64,000 nucleotides of DNA from an uncultured Pseudomonadales bacterium (GTDB lineage: Bacteria > Pseudomonadota > Gammaproteobacteria > Pseudomonadales > JBECKS01). Where the stretch lies: the NCBI GenBank assembly GCA_964557005.1, contig CAZKYI010000003.1, positions 22,378 to 86,377 on the forward strand, written 5' to 3'. Every line of letters starts with the position of its first letter. The first letter of the stretch is position 1. The notes beneath the pieces are model-generated. The model was not told where the DNA came from. It saw nothing but the letters and a program-made list of their open reading frames with translations, and did no database searches. The translations under genes and the position numbers were made by a program. Shown here in pieces: positions 22,544 through 33,251 of this stretch.

Positions 22544-23185
22544 ATGCGTCGCCTGTCAAAACTCGATTTGCTGCTTAAAAACGGAGATCAGATTCTTCGA
22601 ACTGTGAGTGGCAACGCTCAGCATTCCGAACGTCCTTCTCCTGCACACCACACCAAAAACACTGCCGAACTTAGCGAACAAAAACGAAAACACATTGCAG
22701 GTTTAATGCGCATCAATCACACGGGCGAAGTGTGTGCGCAAGCGCTCTATCAAGGTCAGGCTTTAACCGCGCGTAGTGAAAAGGTAAAACAAAACATGCA
22801 GGTTGCTGCCAACGAAGAAATTGATCATCTGGTTTGGTGTGAACAACGGCTTGCAGACTTGAATGATCATGTCAGTTATCTCAACCCGCTTTGGTATGCA
22901 CTGTCTTTTTCTTTGGGCGCGATTGCAGGTTTGGCAGGCGATGAATGGAGTCTGGGCTTTGTAAAAGAAACCGAAGATCAGGTGGTGAAGCACCTCGAAT
23001 CACATCTTGATCAAATTCCTGTGAGCGACCAGGCCACTCGCTCTGTGCTTTTGCAAATGAAAACCGATGAAGCCAAACATGCGCACATGGCACAACAAGA
23101 AGGCGCTCACGAATTACCTGTACCAGTTAAGAAAGCCATGAGCCTGATGTCCAAGGCCATGACAGGTTCTTGTTATTATATTTAG
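22544..23185 (+). CDS. coq7: Demethoxyubiquinone hydroxylase (2-nonaprenyl-3-methyl-6-methoxy-1,4-benzoquinol hydroxylase)
   Basis: Di-iron motifs MRINHTGEVCAQALYQGQ, NEEIDHL, ETEDQVVKHL, DEAKHAH. The ATG at 22544 avoids the listed 78-nt overlap with the HIT gene. Confidence 0.85.
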   Translation: MRRLSKLDLLLKNGDQILRTVSGNAQHSERPSPAHHTKNTAELSEQKRKHIAGLMRINHTGEVCAQALYQGQALTARSEKVKQNMQVAANEEIDHLVWCEQRLADLNDHVSYLNPLWYALSFSLGAIAGLAGDEWSLGFVKETEDQVVKHLESHLDQIPVSDQATRSVLLQMKTDEAKHAHMAQQEGAHELPVPVKKAMSLMSKAMTGSCYYI

Positions 23186-23215
23186 AAAACCAGATTCGTT
23201 ATTGTTCTGCTCACA

Positions 23216-23284
23216 GTCATCTTGAGCGAACGCAGTGAGTCGAAAGATCTCCAAATGAGATCCCTCGACTTCGCTCGGGATGAC
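23216..23284. repeat. 69-bp bulged imperfect palindrome (two inverted copies of repeat module Y)
   Basis: The left arm GTCATCTTGAGCGAACGCAGTGAGTCGAAAGATCTC pairs with the right arm GAGATCCCTCGACTTCGCTCGGGATGAC in four 6-bp blocks. It has an 8-nt left-arm bulge and a 5-nt loop. Confidence 0.8.
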
Positions 23285-23300
23285 CTTGAATGAGGTTATC

Positions 23301-23346
23301 GAACATGAATAAACAAACAAAATGTTGCAAGTGCAGCAGAAGAAAC
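23301..23346 (+). repeat. Repeat module Z, copy 1 (conserved box of about 45 bp upstream of a cassette ORF)
   Basis: GAACATGAATAAACAAACAAAATGTTGCAAGTGCAGCAGAAGAAAC is near-identical to 24072-24116. Confidence 0.8.
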
Positions 23347-23362
23347 AATTGGGTGATCATCA

Positions 23363-24013
23363 ATGACAGGGCAAGTATCTCATACCGTTCAATTCCACGA
23401 TGAGGAATATAAGGTTTTAGCAGTATATCCAGATGAGCCGTTCACACCAGAACACATAGGATTAACAACAAGATGGGTGAGTACCTCCTGCTTTGGAGGG
23501 TATCTTTGTAAGTTTGAAGTTGCAGACAAACAGTTTCGATTAAGATCATTGGAATTGTCACTGAGAGCAGAAGATGGGGAAGCCGAATTTCTTGAAAAAA
23601 TGCCGCAGTTATTCGGGAAAAGTGCAACACTCCCAGAACCTTACGCAAGCAATGTTGGCGAATATTTGAATTTAAACTACCAATTACCTTTTTCTGGTGA
23701 AATTTTATTTGGTCGATTCGATGAAGACTTACGAGCTTCTTGGCATGGTTACACACGAGCTTGGGAGTGTGAAGAAGTGTGGCATCTGGTATCGTCAAAC
23801 GGTTGCATTACAAAAGTTAAGGAAGTTTCAGACATTTTCGAGCGCTTCCGAGAGCTTTATGTGATTCAATTTTGTGACATTGGTAATTCAGAATATGCAA
23901 AAGGCAAATCAGCATCAGATGAATATACAATACATTGGTGCTTGCCAGAAAACAGGAAAAAATATCGGGCATTTTTAAAACGTCGCTTTGGTCATAGGTT
24001 TGATATTTATTAA
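23363..24013 (+). CDS. Hypothetical protein (orphan cassette ORF, 216 aa)
   Basis: A long ORF in the co-oriented array with no overlapping alternative. I recognise no family motif, signal peptide or TM. Confidence 0.5.
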   Translation: MTGQVSHTVQFHDEEYKVLAVYPDEPFTPEHIGLTTRWVSTSCFGGYLCKFEVADKQFRLRSLELSLRAEDGEAEFLEKMPQLFGKSATLPEPYASNVGEYLNLNYQLPFSGEILFGRFDEDLRASWHGYTRAWECEEVWHLVSSNGCITKVKEVSDIFERFRELYVIQFCDIGNSEYAKGKSASDEYTIHWCLPENRKKYRAFLKRRFGHRFDIY

Positions 24014-24022
24014 TGAATTTCC

Positions 24023-24116
24023 GCCTAACAAACGAACACTTACTTCAAGATAGCCCCTAAGCAAGGCCATTGAACATGAATAAACAAACAAAATGTTACA
24101 AGCGCAACAAAAGAAC
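24023..24116 (+). repeat. Complete inter-cassette boundary unit (modules X-Y-Z); attC-like candidate
   Basis: It starts GCCTAACAAACGAACACTTACT; the 15-mer AAACGAACACTTACT is identical to 25973-25987. A degenerate Y module follows, then Z (24072-24116) ending in ATGTTACAAG. A possible -35 TTACAA (24096) and -10 TATTAT (24118), 16 nt apart, precede hicB. Confidence 0.6.
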
Positions 24117-24162
24117 CTATTATGCTCTATGCAGTGTCTTCAACTTTGGGTAAAGTTTGACC

Positions 24163-24375
24163 ATGAATACTCAATATACAGCAATCGTAAAAAAAGAAGG
24201 TAACTGGTGGATCGGCTGGATCGAAGAAGTTCCAGGGGTTAATTGTCAGGAATCTACCAAAGATGCTCTTGTGGAATCTTTGAGAATAACGCTTGGAGAG
24301 GCTTTGGAACTCAATCGCAGTGATGCCATTACTGCGGCAGGCGAAGGATTTGAGGAGCTCAGAGTGGCTTTATGA
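24163..24375 (+). CDS. hicB: HicB-family antitoxin (short form, no obvious DNA-binding domain)
   Basis: YTAIVKKEGNWWIGWIEEVPGVNCQESTKDALVESL matches the HicB/UPF0150 fold. The stop overlaps the hicA start in ATGA (24372-24375). Confidence 0.75.
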   Translation: MNTQYTAIVKKEGNWWIGWIEEVPGVNCQESTKDALVESLRITLGEALELNRSDAITAAGEGFEELRVAL

Positions 24376-24557
24376 AACGACGCGACCTGATTCGGCATCT
24401 CGAATCTCATGGTTGCGAACTGCTCAGGGAAGGCGGCAGACATTCTTGGTGGCACAACCCTTCTCAAAACAAGCGTTCAGCAGTTCCGCGACATCAAGAG
24501 ATAGACAAGCACTTGGCACGCAAGATTTGCACCGATCTTGGAATTCCCAAGCCGTGA
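24372..24557 (+). CDS. hicA: HicA mRNA interferase toxin
   Basis: MKRRDLIRHLESHGCELLREGGRHSWWHNP...VPRHQEI is the HicA/YcfA signature. Confidence 0.85.
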   Translation: MKRRDLIRHLESHGCELLREGGRHSWWHNPSQNKRSAVPRHQEIDKHLARKICTDLGIPKP

Positions 24558-24561
24558 ACTC

Positions 24562-24653
24562 ACATAACAATAAAGTAAGTTAGACAGCAATCCAGAAGCA
24601 AAAAACCAGATGCGAGATATATGTTGTTTCTGTAATAAAAGAAACTGTTAGAT
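24562..24653 (+). repeat. attC-like candidate site downstream of hicA
   Basis: It begins ACATAACAA 8 nt after the stop. It ends in GTTAGAT (24647-24653), a perfect GTTRRRY core site, 22 nt before the next start codon. It contains an internal GTTTCT/AGAAAC stem. Confidence 0.4.
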
Positions 24654-24674
24654 TTTTTGATGAGAAAAAAATAA

Positions 24675-25073
24675 ATGCGTAAGCCTGTAATCATTGCCAC
24701 TTTTTCTTTCCCTCATGAGGCACAAATAGCTCGTTCCAGTTTAGAAAGTGCTGGCATACCAGCGACAGTGGCAGATGAACACACAATTAATATGCAATGG
24801 TTGTATTCTCATGCCTTAGGTGGCGTGAAGGTTCTAGTGCCGCAAGAGTATGCAGATGAAGCACTTGGTATCTTAAGTAGTGATTTTTCTCAAGAAATAG
24901 AAGAGCCCTTTAAAAAAGAGTTATATTGTCCTTCTTGTAAAAGTTTTAATCTTGAGCCTTATACCAAAAGCAAAAAGTCGGCTTTTCTGATTTTTATTTT
25001 TCTGGGATTTCCATTGTTTTTCTATAAGCATGGATTAAAGTGTAATGATTGCGGTTTTTTCTGGAAAAAATAA
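24675..25073 (+). CDS. DUF2007-like (putative signal-transducing) domain protein with a C-terminal zinc ribbon split by a TM helix
   Basis: The N-terminal part IATFSFPHEAQIARSSLESAGIPATVADEH...GGVKVLVPQEYADEA is DUF2007-like. This is followed by CPSC, a hydrophobic stretch FLIFIFLGFPLFF, and CNDC. Confidence 0.6.
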   Translation: MRKPVIIATFSFPHEAQIARSSLESAGIPATVADEHTINMQWLYSHALGGVKVLVPQEYADEALGILSSDFSQEIEEPFKKELYCPSCKSFNLEPYTKSKKSAFLIFIFLGFPLFFYKHGLKCNDCGFFWKK

Positions 25074-25212
25074 CAATCAACTCAAGAGCGATATAGGTGC
25101 TATCGCGCCTCGGCCACCTATTTGAGCGTTGAGAGCTATGAACTACAAAGCCCCCCATCTAGATATGGTGGCTTCTGGCGTTCAGCTTGGTAGCCTGACC
25201 AACGGGCATGTA

Positions 25213-25257
25213 CTGATGAGACCAAACATGCACACATCGCAAAACAAGAAGACGCAT
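25213..25257 (+). pseudogene. coq7: Displaced, diverged fragment of the coq7 3' end
   Basis: 25213-25255 aligns with coq7 23064-23106 at 36 of 43 nt by hand. It encodes TDETKHAHIAKQEDA* where coq7 has TDEAKHAHMAQQEGAHE. A possible extension back to CATCTAGAT (25156) matches coq7 CATCTTGAT (23003), with a 4-nt length difference that causes a frameshift. Confidence 0.65.
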
Positions 25258-25294
25258 GAGATCCCTCGACTGCGCTGGGAATAACCTTGTGGTG
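25258..25294 (+). repeat. Repeat module Y copy fused directly to the coq7 remnant
   Basis: GAGATCCCTCGACTGCGCTGGGAATAACCTTGTGGTG is the counterpart of 23257-23296 (GAGATCCCTCGACTTCGCTCGGGATGACCTTGAATGAGG). Confidence 0.75.
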
Positions 25295-25320
25295 TTATGT
25301 GCTAATCAGCACTAGCTCTC

Positions 25321-25365
25321 TTGCGAGATATAACAAATATGTTACTATCCGTCCATGACATGGAC
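25321..25365 (+). promoter_or_regulatory. Putative higBA promoter plus a 15-bp perfect palindrome (operator candidate) over the start codon
   Basis: -35 TTGCGA (25321-25326), 16-nt spacer, -10 TACTAT (25343-25348). The palindrome GTCCATGACATGGAC (25351-25365) contains the ATG at 25355. There is no Shine-Dalgarno, so the mRNA may be leaderless. Confidence 0.45.
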
Positions 25366-25684
25366 GATTGAATATAGATACAAGGATGTGGAGCAGTTTG
25401 TATTGATGCTGCCCACTGGCTTGTCAGCAAAGTATTTCCATTTAACAGATTTGATGTTGGAGTTTGGGGCAGATTTGGGTATGCCTCATACAAAACCCAT
25501 GTCCAATGGTCTATTTGAACTACGGGTGAAAGGTAAGGAAGGTATTGCCAGAGTCTTTTACTGCACCAAAGTGGGTAAGCAGATCATCATGTTGCATGCT
25601 TTCATAAAGAAAACTCCAAAGACACCACCGAAAGAATTACGTAAAGCTCAACAACGCTTGAGTGAGGTAAAAAATGAACCATAG
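25355..25684 (+). CDS. higB: RelE/ParE-superfamily toxin (HigB / phage Gp49-like)
   Basis: LFELRVKGKEGIARVFYCTKVGKQIIMLHAFIKKTPKTPPKEL is the Gp49/HigB signature. The toxin-first order and the 11-nt overlap with the antitoxin are typical of higBA. Confidence 0.8.
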   Translation: MTWTIEYRYKDVEQFVLMLPTGLSAKYFHLTDLMLEFGADLGMPHTKPMSNGLFELRVKGKEGIARVFYCTKVGKQIIMLHAFIKKTPKTPPKELRKAQQRLSEVKNEP

Positions 25685-25961
25685 TGAATTAAAAGCAAAA
25701 GCACTTTCCAATCCCAAGGTGAAAGCTGCTTACGATAAAATGGCTCCAGAATTTGCGCTTCTGAGACAAATGCTCAAAGCAAGGCAGGCAGCAGGGCTTA
25801 GTCAGGCTGATGTCGCAGAACTTATGGGTACAAAACCACCTGCAGTAACACGACTTGAATCTTCCCTGAGTAACGGCAAACATTCTCCTTCATTGGCTAC
25901 ACTGCAAAAATATGCTCATGCAGTCGGATACGAGCTACAAGTTAAACTGGTACGCCCATAA
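25674..25961 (+). CDS. higA: XRE-family HTH antitoxin (HigA-like)
   Basis: HTH LSQADVAELMGTKPPAVTRLE; the size and position downstream of higB fit. Confidence 0.8.
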   Translation: MNHSELKAKALSNPKVKAAYDKMAPEFALLRQMLKARQAAGLSQADVAELMGTKPPAVTRLESSLSNGKHSPSLATLQKYAHAVGYELQVKLVRP

Positions 25962-26012
25962 CAAGCTGAAGCAAACGAACACTTACTGCGTTCGGGATGA
26001 CCCTGCATAAGG
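25959..26012 (+). repeat. Terminal boundary unit (modules X-Y, no Z) abutting the yhfA stop
   Basis: TAACAAGCTGAAGCAAACGAACACTTACTGCGTTCGGGATGACCCTGCATAAGG shares the X 15-mer with 24030-24044 and the Y core with 23269-23296 and 25269-25294. Confidence 0.7.
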
Positions 26013-26020
26013 CTCCTTAA

Positions 26021-26437
26021 CTACCCCACAACTTCATAACTGTGGGTGATATTCACGCCCGCCTTGCCCAACATAATCGAAGCCGAACAATATTTTTCTG
26101 CCGATAATTCCACCGCTCGTTTTACCTGGGTTTCTTTTAAATTATTCCCTTTCACCACAAAGTGAATGTGAATACTTTCGAACACAGCAGGTACCGCATC
26201 TACCCGTTTTGCCTTGAGCTGCGCCTCACAATCCGTTACATCCTGTCGTGCTTTTTTGAGAATGTGCACCACATCAAAAGCAGAACAACCACCAACGCCC
26301 AATAACAACATTTCCATCGGTCTTGGCCCCTGATTTTTACCGCCGTGATCTTCGGGGCCGTCCATGGTTATGCGATGCCCTGTTCCAGACAGTGCATCGA
26401 AACGCGCTTCACCTTGCCACGAAATTTTACATTCCAT
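26021..26437 (-). CDS. yhfA: OsmC/Ohr family protein (YhfA-like)
   Basis: It has the OsmC fold size and the motif LLGVGGCSAFDVVHILKK...CSASIML. It is divergent from crp, where I recall yhfA lying in E. coli. Confidence 0.75.
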   Translation of the reverse strand: MECKISWQGEARFDALSGTGHRITMDGPEDHGGKNQGPRPMEMLLLGVGGCSAFDVVHILKKARQDVTDCEAQLKAKRVDAVPAVFESIHIHFVVKGNNLKETQVKRAVELSAEKYCSASIMLGKAGVNITHSYEVVG

Positions 26438-32021: not shown

Positions 32022-33251
32022 ATGGACAAAACACTCACATCAAAAAGTAACATAACTTTGTTTGGCCGCATTCGCGATATTCTGGATTCGGCGAGAAGCA
32101 ACATCACACGCACAGTCAATACCACTCAGGTGATAGCCAACTGGCTGATTGGCCGCGAAATTGTAGAAGCTGAGCAAGGTGGAAAACAGCGAGCCGACTA
32201 CGGCAGCAAAGCCCTTGCCGAGTTATCTGCTCGATTAGGTGAAGCATATGGGCGTGGTTTTTCCGTTGATAATCTGGAAGCTTTCAGGCAGTTCTATCTG
32301 GAATACCCACAGCTAATTTCCGAGACACTGTCGCGGAATTTGAGCCTGCCCTACATTTCCGAGACACCGTCTCGGAAATCTGCCAAAACACCAACTACTG
32401 TTGTCTGGCAACCTGGAGTTTTGAGCCAGCAACTTTCATGGAGCCACTATCGCGCCCTACTCAAAGTGAGTCGCTCTGAGGCACGGGCATTCTATGAAAT
32501 TGAAGCCATTAACAATGCTTGGTCAGTGCGCGAGCTGGAACGGCAAATTAACAGTTTGCTATTTGATCGCTTGGCAAAAAGTCGGGATAAAAAAGGGCTG
32601 ATGCGTTTGGCTACACATGGGCAAGAAGTGGTACAGCCTTTAGATGTGTTGAAAGACCCTGTCGTACTGGAATTTTTGAATCTGCCCGAATCACCTCGTT
32701 TGGTGGAATCGCAGTTAGAGCAGGCTTTAATCAATAATCTGCAAACCTTTTTACAGGAGCTGGGCAAGGGCTTTGCGTTTGTCTCGCGGCAAGAACGTAT
32801 TACGCTTGATGGTGATCATTTTTATATTGATCTGGTTTTCTATCACACGGTTCTGAAATGTTATGTGTTGGTGGATCTGAAGGTGGGCAAGTTGACACTT
32901 GGCGATCTTGGACAAATTCAATTCTATGTAAACTATTATGACCGTGAGCGACGCACTCAGGGTGATAACCCAACGCTTGGCTTAGTTTTGTGCCCGAATA
33001 AAAATAATGCCGTAGTAAAATACACGCTGGGCGATCAATTAAAAAAGAATATTTTTACCAGTCACTACCAATTGTATTTACCAACCGAAAAAGAATTAGA
33101 GCAAGAATTAAAACGGGAGTTGCGTTTTCTTTCACCCAAACAAACTGAAATCGAAAAAAGAACAACTACTAAAAAAACAATTAAGAAAAAATCAAAAAGC
33201 AAAAAACCGATTGAAAAAAATAAAAATAATAAACGGAAACCCAAAGCATGA
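32022..33251 (+). CDS. yhcG: YhcG-family PD-(D/E)xK nuclease (DUF1016) with a Lys-rich C-terminal tail
   Basis: LSWSHYRALLKV, FYEIEAINNAWSVRELERQI, and nuclease core GDHFYIDLVFYH...YVLVDLKVGK. The last ~40 aa are K/N/T-rich low complexity. Confidence 0.85.
   Translation: MDKTLTSKSNITLFGRIRDILDSARSNITRTVNTTQVIANWLIGREIVEAEQGGKQRADYGSKALAELSARLGEAYGRGFSVDNLEAFRQFYLEYPQLISETLSRNLSLPYISETPSRKSAKTPTTVVWQPGVLSQQLSWSHYRALLKVSRSEARAFYEIEAINNAWSVRELERQINSLLFDRLAKSRDKKGLMRLATHGQEVVQPLDVLKDPVVLEFLNLPESPRLVESQLEQALINNLQTFLQELGKGFAFVSRQERITLDGDHFYIDLVFYHTVLKCYVLVDLKVGKLTLGDLGQIQFYVNYYDRERRTQGDNPTLGLVLCPNKNNAVVKYTLGDQLKKNIFTSHYQLYLPTEKELEQELKRELRFLSPKQTEIEKRTTTKKTIKKKSKSKKPIEKNKNNKRKPKA

Follow-up and report, generated by a model that had tools for sequence, protein, structure and literature searches.

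Clusters of attC sites lacking an integron integrase (CALINs) are defined by at least two attC sites recognised with a covariance model and no integron integrase, and in most of them such sites number fewer than six (Cury et al. 2016, PMC4889954). The integron integrase IntI can also insert cassettes at genomic attG sites, which offer a 5'-GWT-3' target (Loot et al., 10.1101/2022.09.11.507474), and cassettes inserted in this way keep their attC and are reported to be excisable (10.1101/2022.09.11.507474). Within chromosomal integrons, cassettes encoding toxin-antitoxin (TA) pairs have a stabilising role (Richard et al. 2024, PMC13108822; PMC11023631). These systems are compared here with an insert of 2835 nt (positions 23186-26020) between coq7 and yhfA on contig CAZKYI010000003.1 of an uncultured Pseudomonadales bacterium, analysed within a stretch of 64 kb that is referred to as the window. 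The insert is probably a fossil cluster of integron gene cassettes whose attC sites have eroded, a stage beyond a CALIN.

The insert resembles a CALIN in its co-oriented small cassettes, the lack of an integrase nearby, its mostly unknown or TA functions and its similar size, and the origins proposed for CALINs (intI loss, rearrangement, secondary-site insertion) apply to it too. It differs in that no attC is detectable, and attC-based tools would miss it. With single attC sites lacking an integrase (SALINs) and small CALINs it shares cassettes outside an integron platform, an intergenic chromosomal site, G|TT starts in keeping with the 5'-GWT-3' target, and local or own promoters. In contrast to these, the attC sites are gone, the attG route is one that we infer, and a fragment of the flank is duplicated. 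Recombination between attC and attG would not be expected to produce a duplicated flank fragment. Like the TA cassettes of sedentary chromosomal integrons, the insert holds two type II TA pairs with their own promoter/operator among promoter-less cassettes, and its higBA unit comes from a very widespread, highly conserved cassette family. Unlike in those integrons, there is no integrase or large array to police, and the TA pairs can only stabilise an islet of 2.8 kb.

The insert and its cassette homologues

A scan with Coq7, using one genome per species, gave 43 loci for comparison (loci and contigs used for comparison carry L numbers below). In the closest relatives found, L003 and L004, which are 72-87% identical to the window at the amino acid level (purD, hinT, coq7, yhfA, crp), and also in L041 and L043, coq7 and yhfA lie tail-to-tail with a gap of ~20-40 nt. 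Because the two genes are adjacent in relatives, the 2.8 kb is a lineage-specific insert. An earlier note on this DNA had described an insert between two conserved housekeeping loci and had called for a comparison of the interval across relatives; the insert was borne out, and L003 and L004 lack the whole block. Beyond yhfA, which is convergent with coq7, come crp and then trpC. The GC content of the insert is 0.37-0.44 versus 0.46-0.50 in the flanks. Six intact co-oriented open reading frames (ORFs) make up four units, namely ORF216, hicBA, DUF2007 and higBA, and all are full-length compared with their homologues. A blastn search of the whole insert against plasmids gave no match. The coq7-yhfA gaps of 0.9-2 kb in the distant relatives L019, L023, L028, L029, L036, L040 and L044 were considered as cassettes and rejected, their translated ORFs resembling housekeeping enzymes (speD-, bioA- and glyoxalase-like).

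Two covariance models were used for attC recognition. R1 was built from 10 attC sites that were cut out and aligned and that share the layout R''(7)-5 nt-L''(3 bp + 1 extrahelical + at least 6 bp)...L'-5/6 nt-R'(7), while R2 comprises 23 sites and behaves like R1. Class 1 integrons were fetched from plasmids with an IntI1 query that is 100% identical to annotated intI1 genes. The models detect unseen attC sites at 17-48 bits, and real attC sites overall score 17-70 bits. Unseen sites found by R1 include the estX attC (24.5 bits) and sites in L064 (48 bits) and L061 (33 bits).

ORF216 encodes an orphan protein with no match in Pfam or NCBIfam and only two homologues among 5.8 billion proteins. 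The closer of these (L046, 70% identity) is flanked by canonical attC sites scoring 47.1 and 27.7 bits, both unseen by R1. The L046 cassette begins at ...CTCAAACG|TTAGGC, 8 nt before the ATG, and its 3' side reads GCCTAAC-AAGTA-...-GCTAGGCG|TTATAT. Nucleotide homology between the window and L046 passes the stop codon and stops after CCGCCTAACAA. This is the R'' box, which the two share unchanged and at an equal offset from the stop. Over the full length of a putative site (24023-24101), alignment to attC reaches 1.8 bits only. The third ORF216 sequence, L047, has ATCTAAC 5 nt past its stop and no attC-model match, and its ORF is flanked by several copies of the repeat AAAAATAGTCCCTCCGGCAC (~148-170, 1436-1490, 1568-1585). 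A profile search of ORF216 against PDB returned nothing meaningful, and a fold predicted by AlphaFold2 (AF2) from the three-sequence alignment was discarded as unusable, with a mean predicted local distance difference test (pLDDT) score of 44.6.

The higBA unit consists of adjacent, overlapping genes for a toxin and a helix-turn-helix (HTH) antitoxin with the domains of their families, as in other HigBA pairs. Dozens of HigB homologues at 85-93% identity occur on short metagenome contigs, and HigA, at 90% identity, falls in a cluster with 119 members, which come from Pseudohongiella, Acinetobacter and marine metagenomes. In L075, whose HigB is 90% identical, the higBA pair has attC matches on both sides. 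Homology between the window and L075 starts at TTATG, the first bases of the cassette (G|TTATG), and continues through the operator palindrome to the ATG (score 31 vs 7.2 ± 1.4 for shuffles), and upstream of G|TTATG the two share no similarity. A further higBA homologue, L079, has an attC nearby at 38.5 bits, and in the homologues an R''-like box follows the stop at a distance of 0-20 nt. The palindrome ATATAACAAATATGTTACTAT is conserved 5' of all the HigB homologues that were read (L074-L079). It probably serves as the operator for HigA and overlaps the -10 region, and it accounts for an extra TAACAA at 25331. The L075 array itself contains three near-identical 105-nt attC sites and one unrelated 61-nt attC (1-57, 729-835, 1575-1676, 1974-2034), a homogeneity typical of sedentary chromosomal integrons; R1 finds three L075 sites, including 105-nt ones at 16.9 bits.

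The DUF2007 unit has a homologue, P0014 (67% identical), in an array with five attC matches of 17-34 bits (L084-L086). In both cases the stop codon lies inside the R'' box, which reads ACGTAAC in the P0014 cassette and AAATAAC in the window. The L084 cassette has G|TTACGT 20 nt before its ATG, the same layout as GTTAGAT in the window. After the DUF2007 stop codon, positions 25074-25130 align to the L084 attC (1296-1365) with a score of 13 vs 7.1 ± 1.5 for shuffles, 7 of 2000 of which were as good. From this alignment, an attC relic is read at 25068-25134 at the level of sequence, although the site has ceased to fit the structural model. No attC-model match is listed for it at E up to 10 with filters off, and its fold has a z of -0.4 to -0.8. 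A hairpin, CTCAA.ATAGGTG / CACCTAT.TTGAG, is still present there, along with ~5 bp of complementarity between R'' and R'.

Two observations were made beside this unit. Between the relic and a fragment of coq7 within the insert, a weak attC-like arrangement at 25140-25183, GAACTACAAAGC-CCCCCATC-TAGATAT-GGTGG...GGCGTTCAGC (~6 bits), may be what remains of a lost cassette. In L052 (~501-979), an intact HigB-like toxin and HTH antitoxin lie upstream of the DUF2007 homologue, whereas in L048-L051 (~L048 5521-5895) the toxin gene is mostly deleted and the antitoxin kept, an example of TA erosion.

As the homologues lie in attC-confirmed arrays and homology breaks at the cassette edges, three of the four units (ORF216, higBA and DUF2007) can be read as former integron cassettes with edges that are still visible, and each has boundaries in common with attC-confirmed cassettes. 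The suggestion of an integron-like cassette array in the earlier note therefore stands as to the descent of these three units by homology and boundaries, and fails as to the present attC state, at most 10 bits.

Core boxes and the state of the attC sites

TAACAA stands at or near the stop codon of all four units (24026, 24565, 25071 and 25959). Of the other open frames in the window that reach 100 aa (~139), only one has it within -3 to +16 of the stop. The presence of TAACAA in four of four units is therefore far beyond chance. Because eight of ten reference attC sites (eight class 1 integron, two L046) start with xxxTAACAA, the motif corresponds to an R'' box and the start of the spacer. Compared with RYYYAAC, GCCTAAC is perfect and ACATAAC, AAATAAC and CCATAAC have one or two mismatches, with AA next in all four. 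As to R' boxes (G|TTRRRY), GTTAGAT (24647) is perfect and stands 21 nt 5' of the ATG at 24675, and GTTATGT (25294) has one mismatch and is homologous to the L075 R' box. Inspection of the insert for core boxes revealed no convincing R' box before ORF216 or hicB. The positions of TAACAA, of GCCTAAC at 24023 and of GTTAGAT had all been read correctly before.

These boxes bear on the possibility of an ordinary accessory islet of TA and orphan genes that has no integron history and in which TAACAA and GTT are coincidental. TA modules are common in small chromosomal islets, the absence of attC-model matches is as expected of such an islet, and TAACAA is over-represented in the whole window (73 observed vs 41 ± 6 expected; 48 on the plus strand and 25 on the minus). 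Nonetheless, this explanation is highly improbable given the contrast between unit ends and other open frames, and given that homologues of three units lie in attC-confirmed arrays with homology breakpoints at the cassette edges. Across the whole window, RYYYAAC (64/34) and GTTRRRY (34/64) show a mirror-image strand bias.

The hicBA unit is the fourth. Its HicA half carries a family domain, while the 70-aa ORF before it has no match in Pfam or NCBIfam and matches TTHA1013 (1wv8) weakly (E 0.31), so the HicB label rests on position and this weak match. A sigma-70-like GTTACA-17-TATTAT precedes hicB inside the second copy of a repeat, Y. Two TA modules with their own promoters had been proposed for the insert. 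For higBA this is supported by the family domains and the conserved operator; for hicBA the sigma-70-like site agrees with it, both signals being predicted, and the HicB half depends on the position and weak match just described.

No attC site was recognised in the insert. An Rfam scan of 22900-26300 at E up to 1 gave nothing, R1 and R2 had no match in the whole window with default filters, and with filters off no match in the insert rose above 10 bits. The collapsed stub after hicA (24562-24585) scores highest, followed by GAATAAC-8 nt-GTTATGT at 25279-25300 (6.6 bits). When the boundaries B0 and B1 were searched alone, the scores were at most 1.9 bits, with B0 at or below -0.2 bits. The fold check that had been suggested for the boundaries did not come out in favour of attC sites, the bottom strands folding no better than shuffles (z 0.3 to -1.05) in an insensitive test where a genuine L046 attC reaches only z -0.98. 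Inspection by eye showed L''/L' pairing with an extrahelical base at none of the boundaries. A tblastn search of the 64 kb window with IntI1 found no IntI homologue (best E 7.9), in agreement with the earlier claim that intI is absent; transposases were not screened systematically.

The insert is not a CALIN by the operational definition because R1 and R2 find no attC site in it, and the proposal that it is one was not upheld. At least two attC sites within 4 kb are needed, none being found with R1 and R2 (which are not IntegronFinder's model), and an integron integrase is absent within 4 kb by the IntI1 search. An attC at the 3' end of a unit, as recognised by a covariance model in an integron cassette, was likewise not found with R1 or R2. 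A complete integron has an intI gene with an adjacent attI and cassette promoter (Pc); here no IntI homologue is present in the window, and coq7 lies directly 5' of the array.

A functional CALIN is a related possibility, in which the divergent boundaries would still be recombinogenic attC sites usable by an IntI encoded elsewhere in the genome. It would be consistent with R''-like boxes at four of four unit ends, with GTTAGAT and GTTATGT at the expected cassette starts, and with the hairpin and R''/R' complementarity retained after DUF2007. Moreover, half of CALINs are in genomes that encode IntI elsewhere (PMC4889954), and the integrase search here covered the 64 kb window. It is unlikely, however, as the insert scores at most 10 bits with filters off while unseen attC sites, among them those flanking homologous cassettes, were found at 17-48 bits. 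The low scores of B0 and B1, the shuffle-like folds and the lack of L''/L' pairing also argue against it.

Under the preferred reading of a fossil cassette cluster, the units would first have existed as TTRRRY-ORF-attC cassettes moved by an integron integrase, and would then have come to lie downstream of coq7 in this lineage. IntI may have inserted them at a chromosomal G|TT of the attG type, or the cluster may be what is left of a larger array. Without an integrase acting, the attC sites would have decayed. What survives of them are R''-like boxes (xxxTAAC then AA) that coincide with or closely follow the stop of each unit, two or three R' boxes (G|TTAGAT, G|TTATGT and possibly GTTGAGA), one attC that can be aligned by sequence, and two collapsed R''/R' stubs, the others having been replaced by local repeats. 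Full-length ORFs beside eroded attC sites fit selection on the genes and not on the sites, as expected without an integrase. Judging from predicted signals, the six ORFs are probably expressed from their own elements, namely the higBA operator and the sigma-70-like site before hicB. By analogy with TA cassettes in chromosomal integrons, the two TA pairs probably make the islet hard to lose, and the cluster is probably now immobile.

Several points weigh against this reading. The attC models were home-made and not those of IntegronFinder, their scores for long attC sites were low (~17 bits), and they gave no match for a site in L052 that by eye is a plausible attC. The intI search covered the 64 kb window of the genome. 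The hicBA unit is not tied to any cassette array, HicB having no match in plasmids and a single relative in viral contigs (61% identical) that is without attC. The repeats and palindrome at the boundaries (X, R, Y and P, described below) are not predicted by simple decay. Finally, the order of events is conjecture, the comparison holding no variant of the locus from the same species or genus.

If the cluster is a fossil, integron cassettes can persist in chromosomes after all detectable attC sites have eroded. Surveys with attC models would miss such clusters, and integron-derived genes are hence probably under-counted. The locus offers a worked example for recognising fossils, through R'' boxes fused to stop codons and homology that breaks at cassette edges, and it provides a case in which higBA, from a very widespread cassette family, has become fixed between housekeeping genes. 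No new mechanism is revealed by it.

Boundary repeats and the duplicated coq7 end

The boundaries of the units have repeat modules in common, as the earlier note had pointed out. Its repeat X (CAAACGAACACTTACT) holds up, with 16 of 16 positions identical between 24029-24044 and 25972-25987. The five copies of Y and two copies of Z that had been counted were left undefined; there are instead two copies of a 58-nt repeat, here called Y, and three clear copies of another, R. Repeat R (GCTCGGGATGACCTTGAATGAGG) is 28-45 nt long, with clear copies at 23255, 25256 and 25985 (82%) and a weak copy near 24040. Its first copy begins with the 3' arm of a 69-nt palindrome, P, close to coq7, and X together with the third copy of R resembles P minus its tip. 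Alignment of P and R to the L075 attC sites was not convincing, and P as a genome-wide palindromic repeat family was rejected, there being no second copy in the window. Just one other contig of this genome is public, Logan SRR16797981_11458 (L001), and it starts inside P at window position 23222; the P hairpin probably broke the Logan assembly.

The insert also contains a 44-nt fragment of the 3' end of coq7, which was not remarked upon in the first reading and which also matches coq7 of L003 and L004. It directly abuts the second copy of R. The segment "coq7 3' end - P - R" is thus present twice at 82-84% identity, and 148 nt are deleted from within the second copy. G|TTAT comes after R both times, and in the second copy it is the start of the higBA cassette.

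These modules could be taken as a new cassette-like system, in which an unidentified recombinase would act on the X-R-Y module and P, or these would form a small element targeting attC or a chromosomal hotspot. The occurrence of R in three or four copies and of X and Y in two, at unit boundaries only, is compatible with such a site. The same is true of the R''-like box before both copies of X, of G|TTAT after R in two copies (one exactly at a cassette start) and of the strong hairpin of P (z -4.7). The system is still very improbable, as no recombinase gene is present in the insert and no IntI-like gene in the window. A search for further copies of X, R, Y and P, which the earlier note had recommended for its modules, found none elsewhere in the 64 kb window or across 0.9 Mb of related loci. 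Scanning metagenomes with the 22-nt core of Y gave five matches, all to one unrelated AT-rich sequence with similarity limited to a 22-23-mer, and these were dismissed as chance. Removal of the X-R-Y module from boundary B1, judged by eye, reconstituted no attC. Furthermore, the joining of the coq7 fragment to one copy of R suggests that R is native flank duplicated by recombination. Nothing positive hence speaks for the different recombinase that had been offered as an alternative, the modules being confined to the insert and the scan with the Y core yielding chance matches only.

A narrower proposal concerns the module R''-X-R-G|TTAT, with its full palindromic form P beside coq7, as a distinct site that is still used and is not attC debris. 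It could be a hairpin-adjacent hotspot loaded repeatedly by an integrase in trans, or it could belong to a small element or recombinase, so far undescribed, that replaces attC sites. We consider this quite improbable.

Within the fossil cluster reading, the duplicated "coq7 3' end - P - R" segment would have arisen by the joining of two diverged alleles of the locus that carried different cassettes, and homology-facilitated illegitimate recombination would do this. Such recombination was reportedly described in transformable bacteria by de Vries and Wackernagel in 2002. By analogy, it would explain a foreign block beside a duplicated, truncated coq7 end (25212-25255, 84%). The facts of the duplication also fit an eroded, array-specific attC family.

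Feature coordinates and a neighbouring gene

Table 1. Features of the insert and its flanks, in window coordinates.
Feature	Position	Strand	Basis or remark
coq7, left flank	22544..23185	+	PF03232, E 6.5e-42; contains segment C (23063-23106), duplicated within the insert
Palindrome P, 69 nt: GTCATCTTGAGCGAACGCAGTGAGTCGAAAGATCTC / GAGATCCCTCGACTTCGCTCGGGATGAC	23216..23284	.	DNA fold -21.7 kcal/mol, z -4.7; 3' arm begins repeat R
Repeat R, copy 1	23255..23299	+	82% identical to 25256-25298 and 25985-26012; then G|TTATCG at 23295-23301
Repeat Y, copy 1, upstream of ORF216	23293..23350	+	84% identical to 24064-24121; 26-nt identical core
ORF216, orphan protein, putative former integron cassette	23363..24013	+	70% nt identity to L046 cassette over 23349-24031
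GCCTAAC, putative retained R'' (inverse core) box of ORF216 cassette	24023..24029	+	CCGCCTAACAA same in L046
Repeat X, copy 1 (CAAACGAACACTTACT)	24029..24044	+	16/16 identical to 25972-25987
Repeat Y, copy 2, upstream of hicB	24064..24121	+	58-nt repeat, 84% to copy 1
Putative HicB antitoxin, 70 aa	24163..24375	+	Position; 4-nt overlap with hicA
HicA toxin	24372..24557	+	PF07927, E 4e-13
Putative collapsed attC-like remnant: ACATAAC, 10 nt, GTTAGAC	24562..24585	+	R'' and R' boxes alone, 10 bits (E 0.21)
GTTAGAT, R' core 21 nt before DUF2007 start codon	24647..24653	+	Read in sequence; layout as L084 cassette
DUF2007 / Cys-rich protein, weak zinc ribbon, putative former cassette	24675..25073	+	PF09413
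Putative decayed attC of DUF2007 cassette	25068..25134	+	AAATAAC overlapping stop codon to GTTGAGA
coq7 3' fragment, 44 nt (TDETKHAHIAKQEDA), directly abutting R copy 2	25212..25255	+	84% identical to 23063-23106
Repeat R, copy 2	25256..25300	+	Ends GTTATGT (25294-25300), R' box at higBA cassette start
Probable higBA operator/promoter palindrome ATATAACAAATATGTTACTAT	25326..25346	.	Conserved 5' of every HigB homologue read, L074-L079
HigB (Gp49/RelE-type toxin)	25355..25684	+	PF05973, E 5e-27
HigA (HTH antitoxin)	25674..25961	+	PF01381, E 5.5e-11; 11-nt overlap with higB
CCATAAC, R''-like box overlapping higA stop codon	25956..25962	+	Read in sequence
Repeat X, copy 2, and repeat R, copy 3	25972..26012	+	Short hairpin CGAACAC-TTACT-GCGTTCG abutting yhfA stop codon
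yhfA (OsmC-like), right flank	26021..26437	-	PF02566; synteny in relatives

Elsewhere in the window, a YhcG/DUF1016 nuclease-like gene (32022-33251; PF17761, PF06250) stands by itself, with the rpe-trpEGDC block on one side and a short-chain dehydrogenase gene on the other, and may be another small accessory insertion.

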